A DNA stretch of 64,000 nt, taken from Shigella phage SF1-1. The stretch lies in the sequence record PQ571307. One strand, 5' to 3'. Shown here piece by piece: positions 50,069-50,611 of the stretch. Made by a program: the position numbers and the translations under genes. Within the stretch, counting starts at the first letter, position 1. Every line of letters begins with the position of its first letter. The notes beneath the pieces were generated by a model, which was given only the letters and a program-made list of their open reading frames with translations, did no database searches and was not told the origin of the DNA.

Positions 50069-50611
50069 TCACAAATATCGTCTTTGCGGTATTTTGTCTG
50101 GGAAAAGTATTTCGATCAGTTTATTATGATATTTGCCTAAAAGATTTTGCCCTTTCCAGTTGACCGGATTTAGCACCCCTGGTTCATACATTCCCATTCC
50201 AATTCCGTAAACCTTATCGTAGGGGCTTGCTTCAACAAACGTTTTGTATTGGTAAAGGTGTAAGTCTGCATACAAATCTGGATTCTGTACATATTTCAAG
50301 CATAAACCTCGCATAACAATACGCTCACGGTTCTCTTCCCATACATTGTTATCAAAATCCGACACTGCCCTACCCATACGTTTGTAATAAGCTTGGATCT
50401 TCTCATCTTTCCGTATCAAACTATGAGTCAGAATAGCCTGTGCAGTGTTGTGGTCATTAAAAAGCAAAGCTTTACGCCACATCATATATTGTTCGACACA
50501 ATTAAATGTCTGATTGTAACCTGGTTCGGTTTCTGTAAAGGGTGCAATATACCAATTACTAAAAACATCTTTATGTGAAAAGAAGAATACATAATCATCA
50601 GTTATTCGCAT
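50069..50611 (-). CDS. NADAR (YbiA-like) domain protein
   Basis: DYVFFFSHKDVFSNWYIAPF ... FNCVEQYMMWRKA pattern typical of NADAR/YbiA N-glycosidase family. Confidence 0.55.
   Translation of the reverse strand: MRITDDYVFFFSHKDVFSNWYIAPFTETEPGYNQTFNCVEQYMMWRKALLFNDHNTAQAILTHSLIRKDEKIQAYYKRMGRAVSDFDNNVWEENRERIVMRGLCLKYVQNPDLYADLHLYQYKTFVEASPYDKVYGIGMGMYEPGVLNPVNWKGQNLLGKYHNKLIEILFPDKIPQRRYL

Follow-up and report, generated by a model that had tools for sequence, protein, structure and literature searches.

Genomic setting of the NADAR gene

The window, which is the entire 64-kb stretch of DNA analysed in this study, belongs to a phAPEC8-like myovirus of the genus Phapecoctavirus (subfamily Stephanstirmvirinae), and the 5.5 kb surrounding the gene of interest show 92-99% identity to many E. 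coli phages of ~150 kb. A string of minus-strand genes is found here in the order AAA ATPase, endonuclease-like gene, two small ORFs and, in the last position, a gene for a NADAR-domain protein. A tRNA scan of the whole 64-kb window returned no tRNA gene. The features of the locus are listed below.

52236-53375, minus strand: AAA ATPase, the first gene in the string that contains the NADAR gene
51159-52166, minus strand: endonuclease-like gene, 335 aa, with a CapR homology domain and a treble-clef zinc finger
50598-50822, minus strand: small upstream ORF, 74 aa, function unassigned (phrog_22330), overlapping the NADAR start in a same-operon context
50620-50624, minus strand: Shine-Dalgarno-like GAAGG, read from the sequence, 8 nt 5' of the NADAR ATG
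50069-50611, minus strand: NADAR-domain gene, 180 aa, ortholog of AdfN-Bas60 and predicted guanine-ADP-ribose DNA glycohydrolase
49976-50013, minus strand: intrinsic-terminator-like hairpin, GGCUCCUAC...GUAGAGAGCC, then UGUUAUUUUGU (U-run), ~55 nt past the NADAR stop

The endonuclease-like gene matches PF21817 with 83 bits and PHROG 681 ("endonuclease") with an E value of 1.3e-64. Its homologs in related phages are between 332 and 486 aa long, and because of this difference in length among phages, the gene is probably mobile and of the homing type. The small ORF at 50598-50822 is absent in Justusliebigvirus, in which the NADAR gene comes directly after the endonuclease-like gene. In the window, the end of this ORF and the start of the NADAR gene overlap by 14 nt, suggesting that translation of the NADAR gene may be coupled to that of the small ORF upstream. 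A functional coupling between the NADAR gene and the endonuclease-like gene was also considered and was rejected, given the variable length of the latter, the differing small ORFs between genera, and the fact that AdfN-Bas60 is active alone when expressed ectopically.

The hairpin past the NADAR stop codon folds as RNA with an energy of -21.8 kcal/mol (z -5.06), and none of 200 shuffled sequences was equally stable. It is conserved across the genus, and the RefSeq record of phAPEC8 carries an ARNold terminator at the homologous position. With such a terminator-like hairpin behind it, the NADAR gene therefore appears to end its transcription unit.

To define whether the gene is an orphan, Pfam was run on the genes immediately beside it and on every ORF of 150 aa or more in the 64-kb window. 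No ART, DarT, macrodomain, Nudix or riboflavin gene was found among them. Within the ORFs covered, the NADAR gene of this lytic phage has no DarT/ART toxin gene as its partner.

Family assignment and fold

The initial annotation had noticed a NADAR pattern in a 180-aa ORF, which was borne out here; the strand (minus), which it had not given, can now be added. The ORF occupies 50069-50611 with the stop codon included, starts with an ATG at 50611-50609, and has exactly 180 codons in the ORF list. This start codon is taken to be correct, as the N-terminus (MRITD...) is kept in orthologs from other genera. The protein matches the Pfam profile PF08719 (NADAR, DUF1768) at positions 3-154 of 163 with an E value of 1.8e-35 and 123 bits, the gathering cut-off being 35.1 bits. 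It also matches the NCBIfam model TIGR02464 with 112.3 bits (curated cut-off, 73.7) and PHROG 1017, labelled "unknown function", with an E value of 7e-52. The only meaningful sequence match in the PDB was the NADAR protein of Phytophthora nicotianae (8BAU; E value, 4e-15). An AlphaFold2 model, made with 56 homologs as input, has a mean pLDDT of 95.8 and a pTM of 0.89, and it displays the NADAR fold. PF08719, TIGR02464, PHROG 1017, 8BAU and the AlphaFold2 model are all in agreement, and the NADAR assignment is far beyond chance.

An identical protein (100%) is encoded by Escherichia phage nepoznato as gp159. Homologs are labelled in GenBank as "hypothetical protein", "GTP cyclohydrolase II", "DNA methyltransferase" or "swarming motility protein". 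The last three labels are wrong for NADAR homologs, and the "GTP cyclohydrolase II" labels look like they were carried over from RibA-fusion proteins. An identity as a defence gene was rejected as well: the match to the PADLOC candidate PDC-M42C (120 bits) is a domain-level NADAR match without system context, the score against the DS-32 NADAR anti-phage protein (NF053876) was 16.5 bits with a cut-off of 240, and the protein is the lytic-phage ortholog of a validated anti-defence protein (see below).

The active site

Schuller et al. (2023) reported that NADARs hydrolyse the guanine-ADP-ribose that DarT1 produces, and established which residues of the P. nicotianae enzyme, PnNADAR, contact ADP-ribose (PMC11543638). 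Eight residues of PnNADAR (E43, K50, R79, W89, R93, E125, D130 and W133) make contacts with ADP-ribose or are required for hydrolysis, with the catalytic Glu and the phosphate-binding Lys being E43 and K50 in PnNADAR and E88 and K95 in E. coli C7 (PMC11543638). These residues were mapped onto the window protein by a HMMER alignment to 8BAU, in which the chain numbering equals that of PMC11543638 plus 2. The corresponding residues are as follows.

PnNADAR E43: E40 in the window protein
PnNADAR K50: K47 in the window protein
PnNADAR R79: R81 in the window protein
PnNADAR W89: W91 in the window protein
PnNADAR R93: R95 in the window protein
PnNADAR E125: E127 in the window protein
PnNADAR D130: D132 in the window protein
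PnNADAR W133: Y135 in the window protein (Trp replaced by Tyr)

The catalytic Glu, the phosphate-binding Lys and the ADP-ribose-contacting Arg, Trp and Asp are thus all found in the window protein. No substitution of E40, K47, W91, E127 or D132 occurs in 56 diverse homologs, R81 is nearly invariant there, and all eight positions (E40, K47, R81, W91, R95, E127, D132 and Y135) are invariant among the Stephanstirmvirinae alleles. The active site of the window protein is predicted to be intact. PnNADAR itself is a eukaryotic member of the stand-alone NADAR family; it differs from the phage clade, which has a segment about 6 residues longer around positions 63-71, and in having W133 where the phage protein has Y135.

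The catalytic residues are strictly invariant both among the alleles and in the 56 homologs, which argues for catalysis and thereby against a protein that would bind or sequester ADP-ribose non-enzymatically, either against an NAD-consuming defence or in balancing an NAD-dependent enzyme of the phage such as a SIR2 protein. A phage NADAR-type inhibitor of Retron-Eco1 has been cited as catalysis-independent (Carabias et al. 2024, as described in the literature citing it), genes for NAMPT and phosphoribosyltransferase are found near some close homologs, and a SIR2-family gene is indeed present in the same 64-kb window (22389-23204; PF02146, 79.8 bits; PHROG 2162). However, the SIR2-family gene is located 27 kb from the NADAR gene, on the other strand and in a separate transcription block. 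Altogether, we consider such a non-catalytic role to be extremely improbable.

Two other groups of NADARs were compared with the protein. The T4 protein gp30.3 (AdfN-T4) has been proposed to do the identical job, as an orphan phage NADAR removing DarT1-made guanine-ADP-ribose from phage DNA, and the E and K catalytic pair is common to both proteins. However, no similarity between the two was detectable by BLASTP (E value, 4.3), in the T4 type the conserved Glu is replaced by His, and full activity of that type needs the context of a Tevenvirinae infection. With Glu and not His at position 127, and with this BLASTP result, membership of the window protein in the gp30.3 subfamily was rejected; the two phage NADARs were acquired independently. 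For DarG1 (E. coli C7; G. lovleyi, 8BAT), the same chemistry is expected, that is, a type IV antitoxin-like reversal of guanine ADP-ribosylation. DarG1 is encoded in an operon with darT1, and has an N-terminal extension and a catalytic arrangement based on an Asp (D171). The window protein is not a DarG1, as it has no N-terminal extension and its gene has no darT1 neighbour.

Orthology to AdfN-Bas60 and the probable link to DarTG1

Johannesman et al. (2025) gave the T4 protein the name AdfN and described distinct NADARs in the BASEL phages Bas32/33 and Bas60-62 (PMC11825919), the latter three being phi92-like phages that are now placed in Justusliebigvirus, the sister genus of Phapecoctavirus. 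AdfN-Bas32 as well as AdfN-Bas60 neutralised DarT1 in E. coli without phage and allowed RB69, T5 and Bas25 to regain plaquing on DarTG1 cells, with AdfN-Bas60 countering DarTG1 fully in titre (PMC11825919). Neither had an effect on DarTG2, which modifies thymine, and T5 was not rescued on DarTG2 cells (PMC11825919). The evidence for Bas60 comes from ectopic expression, and no native-phage knockout of AdfN-Bas60 was found in the text of that paper (PMC11825919).

The genome of Bas60 (PaulScherrer, MZ501100) has a single NADAR gene, bas60_0111, annotated as "putative YbiA-like N-glycosidase"; through this locus tag and annotation, AdfN-Bas60 was identified as bas60_0111. The versions in EmilieFrey (Bas61) and JohannJBalmer are 98.9-100% identical to it. 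The window protein shares 59% identity with bas60_0111 over 172 residues (E value, 7e-69). In a search of 5.8 billion proteins, the closest homologs beyond its own genus, of ~175-183 aa, were 53-61% identical, all others being at 48% or below, and these nearest homologs are Justusliebigvirus and Klebsiella Stephanstirmvirinae proteins. Phapecoctavirus and Justusliebigvirus also have a common gene order: AAA ATPase, endonuclease-like gene, NADAR gene, terminator, ~800 bp of non-coding DNA and a convergent small ORF. From the 59% identity, the shared gene order and the ranking of the nearest homologs, we conclude that the window protein is the positional ortholog of AdfN-Bas60.

Both proteins are stand-alone orphan NADARs of ~180 aa from lytic Stephanstirmvirinae myoviruses, encoded at the same position with the same conserved non-coding block downstream, and their catalytic residues, including the canonical Glu, are identical. 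They differ in 41% of their residues, most of these differences falling within the loop at 26-37 and the helical segment at 51-92, and Phapecoctavirus has two extra small ORFs between the endonuclease-like gene and the NADAR gene. While in vivo data exist for AdfN-Bas60 (PMC11825919), the function of the window protein is predicted through orthology.

The initial annotation had proposed that a NADAR carried by a phage may serve as an anti-DarTG factor. This proposal gains support from the syntenic, 59%-identical AdfN-Bas60, which neutralises DarT1 (PMC11825919), and from the kept catalytic residues, and on the strength of orthology it probably holds for the window protein. The target, given simply as DarTG, can be narrowed: the part concerning DarT1, which acts on guanine, stands, whereas DarT2/DarTG2 should be removed from it, since the AdfN proteins were without effect on this system (PMC11825919). 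As the anti-DarT1 function has already been published for the ortholog from the sister genus, it is no longer a new hypothesis. We found no literature on this Phapecoctavirus protein or on Phapecoctavirus versus DarTG.

Selection, distribution and allelic mosaicism

When the NADAR gene was compared with its orthologs in phAPEC8, tuntematon, Schickermooser, REC and Bas60, the dN/dS values were between 0.02 and 0.18 (Nei-Gojobori), which indicates purifying selection. At a threshold of at least 80% identity, NADAR and the neighbouring ATPase were each found in 70 phage records, consistent with the presence of the NADAR gene throughout the genus, although the comparison is one of record counts and not record by record. 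At 99% identity or above, only 14 of the 70 records were retained for NADAR versus 62 of 70 for the ATPase, so that NADAR is far more variable. The allele of Schickermooser and REC is a mosaic in which synonymous divergence is saturated at codons ~34-95, with a dS of ~0.19 in the flanking codons. This mosaic divergence points to recombination between NADAR alleles, in which the adjacent endonuclease-like gene of variable length may plausibly have helped.

The closest relatives of the window protein are found in phages and prophages. The contexts of three more distant homologs (41-45% identical), present on long contigs, were examined. One comes from a prophage-like region of Burkholderia that includes a Gp3-like gene. 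The other two are on contigs of ~330-350 kb, which look like jumbo phages and carry small ORFs arrayed on one strand as well as genes for NAMPT and phosphoribosyltransferase. No DarT/ART or riboflavin gene adjoins any of the three.

These contexts bear on another function, which the initial annotation had named as the alternative: in the infected cell, the protein could act as a YbiA-like metabolic N-glycosidase for reactive intermediates of the riboflavin pathway (damage control or directed overflow). The evidence for this is the domain-level match to TIGR02464, the cut-off of this "riboflavin biosynthesis intermediates N-glycosidase" model being passed, which counts against the DarT1 reading. 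However, TIGR02464 spans the same domain as the Pfam NADAR profile and therefore does not discriminate between subfamilies. E. coli YbiA (COG3236/TIGR02464), which is chromosomal and belongs to a LexA-controlled operon with dinG and ybiB (PMC11125620), is only 29% identical over 96 residues, i.e., half the protein (E value, 2e-6). Neither a fusion to or clustering with RibA/RibD nor a close similarity to YbiA was observed, riboflavin genes being absent from the scanned window ORFs as well as from the surroundings of the three homologs. Moreover, the Bas60 type falls outside the YbiA-like housekeeping branch according to Johannesman et al. (PMC11825919), and anti-DarT1 activity has been demonstrated for the ortholog with 59% identity. 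With its low identity to YbiA, the lack of riboflavin gene context in these scans and its closest relatives in phages and prophages, a riboflavin-related function of the window protein is very unlikely.

A conserved non-coding element downstream

The NADAR terminator and the convergent ORF at 48992-49264 are separated by ~800 bp without a supported ORF. In its distal part (~49267-49545), this block hardly differs between Phapecoctavirus and Justusliebigvirus, even though their NADAR proteins are only 59% identical, and the 1-2-nt indels found in this part show that it is not coding. By blastn, the element was found in 352 phage records of Stephanstirmvirinae and Vequintavirinae, in most of which it is unannotated. 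On the plus strand, it carries a conserved predicted promoter (TTGACA-N17/18-TAtACT) followed by ~230 nt of GC-rich sequence. RNAalifold, applied to nine diverse copies, gave 32 pairs, three of them with double-sided compensatory changes (one pair is GC in five copies and AU in four); the covariation term for the structure as a whole is small, with a z-score of only -1.2 for the single sequence. Tandem palindromes at 49520-49640, similar to the E. coli Fur box, adjoin the 3' end of the element. One palindrome has 3 mismatches to the 19-mer Fur box consensus, and the window holds two such matches versus 0.02 expected by chance. The "Fur box" mentioned in PMC6969025 concerns the sit operons of lambda and is unrelated to this element.

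No Rfam match was obtained at E values up to 1 over 48500-51000, so that the non-coding block does not fall into a described RNA family; the element could represent a phage small RNA, or a regulatory element, of a kind not yet described. A replication origin in this gap was considered but is not supported, as the GC skew follows gene orientation, switching near 24 kb and 56 kb with no switch at 49.5 kb. A functional coupling with the NADAR gene was likewise rejected: in Klebsiella phage FBKp34 the element and the NADAR gene are ~21 kb apart, and the element is thus not part of NADAR function.

Discussion

By profile and fold, our analysis places the gene in the NADAR family. The active site of its product is intact, it is orthologous to and syntenic with the gene for AdfN-Bas60, it is under purifying selection, and its distribution is consistent with presence throughout the genus. 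The substrate (guanine-ADP-ribose), the target (DarT1) and the effect on replication are suggested by the ortholog and by the literature on the family. On these grounds, we think it likely that the gene encodes a NADAR eraser of DarT1-made guanine-ADP-ribose that counters DarTG1. The phage would make a stand-alone NADAR ADP-ribosylglycohydrolase during infection, and this enzyme would release ADP-ribose from (single-stranded) phage DNA by cutting the N-glycosidic bond that links it to the N2 of guanine. Such removal would erase the marks set by DarT1, the host toxin of the DarTG1 toxin-antitoxin defence, so that the block of replication is lifted and replication of the phage DNA can proceed. 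The protein would thus be an orphan "antitoxin-like" counter-defence factor, acting on the modified DNA and not through binding of the toxin. It would be of the AdfN-Bas60 type, with the canonical Glu at the position equivalent to E125, no N-terminal extension, and autonomous function in E. coli.

The chemistry is common to the family. Cihlova et al. (2024) found four NADAR subtypes, including T4 gp30.3, all to be active in vitro on guanine-ADP-ribose (PMC11125620), and every NADAR subfamily tested hydrolysed this substrate in vitro (PMC11125620; PMC12945103). However, YbiA and T4 gp30.3 did not rescue uninfected cells from DarT1 toxicity despite their in vitro activity (PMC11125620). Catalytic residues and activity in vitro are therefore no guarantee of protection in cells.

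Related NADARs are found in 718 phage records (phages of Staphylococcus, Listeria, Bacillus, Enterococcus and others), a spread that is broader than would be expected for one sporadic defence system and which speaks against the DarT1 reading by hinting at additional or different substrates. The protein might then be an eraser of ADP-ribose on nucleic acids whose physiological target is not, or not only, DarT1, such as cytidine- or guanosine-ADP-ribose placed on DNA or RNA by pierisin/ScARP-like toxins or by undescribed ART-based defences. The NADAR and YbiA families with the canonical Glu remove cytidine-ADP-ribose, which the DarG1 and T4 NADARs do not (PMC12945103). NADARs also act on RNA. 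On the other side, AdfN-Bas60, the nearest protein tested, does counter DarTG1 with full restoration of titre, and a broader target overlaps with the DarT1 reading, not excluding it. We know of no other cognate ART defence for E. coli phapecoctaviruses. We therefore regard a physiological target other than, or beyond, DarT1 as rather unlikely. As a tentative and somewhat doubtful extension, the Phapecoctavirus NADAR may be a broad-spectrum eraser of ADP-ribose on nucleic acids, directed against several ADP-ribosyltransferase-based attacks and not DarT1 alone, since the clade has retained E127 and, in structure, comes nearest to the stand-alone NADAR family, which erases cytidine-ADP-ribose and works on RNA. 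If this were true, the mosaic, fast-diverging 51-92 segment, with a homing-endonuclease-like gene beside it, would reflect a continuing arms race in which either access to the substrate or sensing of the protein by the host is at stake.

Returning to the likely role as an eraser of DarT1-made marks, a gene labelled "hypothetical protein" can now be given a specific, predicted function in counter-defence. The conceptual gain is small, as the mechanism and the ortholog from the sister genus have already been published. The value of the finding lies in a correct annotation, in the question of substrate breadth (guanine versus cytosine, DNA versus RNA), and in host-range prediction for therapeutic phages. 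phAPEC8-like phages are used in phage therapy and in the biocontrol of pathogenic E. coli. If the gene acts like AdfN-Bas60, these phages should intrinsically resist DarTG1-carrying strains, which would be useful in predicting their host range.

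A conserved non-coding block downstream of the NADAR gene

Between the NADAR terminator and the convergent ORF, the following elements were found, together with one outlying Fur-box-like match.

49267-49545, plus strand: conserved GC-rich non-coding block, marked by cross-genus sequence conservation and a sigma70-like promoter in front
49520-49640: three to five tandem palindromes of the AATGAGAATgATTCTCATT type, with likeness to the E. coli Fur box
49526-49544, minus strand: Fur-box-like match, 3 mismatches to GATAATGATAATCATTATC
41440-41458, plus strand: Fur-box-like match, 3 mismatches to GATAATGATAATCATTATC
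49650-49830, minus strand: pair of ~55-nt direct repeats, both containing a promoter-like TTTACA-N18-CAAAAT

The block at 49267-49545 is nearly identical between genera, even though the flanking proteins there are only about 59% identical, and it is not coding because of indels of 1-2 nt. The sigma70-like promoter that precedes it on the plus strand, TTGACA-N17/18-TAtACT, is itself conserved. By blastn, the block was found in 352 phage records of the Stephanstirmvirinae and Vequintavirinae, most of them leaving it without annotation, and no Rfam family matched it when positions 48500-51000 were searched at E<=1. When nine diverse copies were folded with RNAalifold, 32 pairs were predicted, with compensatory changes in 3 of these. 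The block may be an undescribed phage small RNA, or possibly two tandem RNAs, with a second promoter lying internally.

The promoter-like motifs of the direct repeats (49826-49797 and 49688-49659) face the palindromes and are antisense to the block; in the record of phage tuntematon, a repeat_region is annotated at the place of these repeats. The palindromes at 49520-49640 are kept across genera, and the two matches to GATAATGATAATCATTATC with 3 mismatches in the window compare with 0.02 expected by chance. These palindromes and the match at 41440-41458 may bind or titrate Fur, may serve a phage regulator, or may belong to a terminator.

Mosaicism of the NADAR gene

The NADAR locus is a recombination hot spot adjoining an endonuclease-like gene of variable length.

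51159-52166, minus strand: gene for an endonuclease-like protein, in which a CapR homology domain is combined with treble-clef zinc fingers (PF21817, 83 bits; PHROG 681)

A comparison of the NADAR gene at 50069-50611 with the alleles of Schickermooser, REC and P0002-P0004 (further alleles of the genus) shows that the genus has mosaic NADAR alleles. In the Schickermooser/REC allele, dS is saturated in codons ~34-95 and is about 0.19 in the flanks. Only 14 of 70 records are at least 99% identical in NADAR, as against 62 of 70 in the ATPase gene two genes upstream. The length of the endonuclease-like gene's homologs differs among phages that are close relatives (332-486 aa), and such variation would be expected of a mobile, homing-type gene.

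Labels in public records

NADAR orthologs appear in GenBank as "GTP cyclohydrolase II", "DNA methyltransferase" (Eryne), "swarming motility protein" (UPEC06, Lpa804) or "hypothetical protein"; such labels are likely mis-annotations. Several records titled "Campylobacter phage" (MG065639-MG065689) give C. jejuni as the host; in the NADAR region they share 93-100% identity with genomes of E. coli Phapecoctavirus and Justusliebigvirus, and their host labels look doubtful.

Other genes in the window

8781-10183, plus strand: RmlC (dTDP-4-dehydrorhamnose 3,5-epimerase, 225 bits) and RmlD (249 bits)
22389-23204, plus strand: SIR2-family, NAD-dependent protein (PF02146, 79.8 bits; PHROG 2162, E 1.7e-104)
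30034-30711, minus strand: serine recombinase or DNA invertase (Resolvase N-terminal domain, 65.9 bits; PHROG 125)

RmlC and RmlD, enzymes of the dTDP-rhamnose pathway, are encoded in the nucleotide-metabolism block, where the genes for ThyX, ribonucleotide reductase and PhoH also lie. The SIR2-family gene is a second NAD/ADP-ribose-related gene of the genome, 27 kb away from NADAR. The serine recombinase or invertase gene is carried by a virulent phage genome.

Distant NADAR homologs

Homologs at 43-45% identity are encoded on contigs of 330-350 kb (L021-L023 and a 354-kb JGI contig), which, with small ORFs arrayed on one strand, resemble jumbo phages. Genes near these homologs encode a phosphoribosyltransferase, a nucleoside deoxyribosyltransferase and NAMPT, a neighbourhood that fits the original "NAD- and ADP-ribose-associated" signal of the NADAR family.
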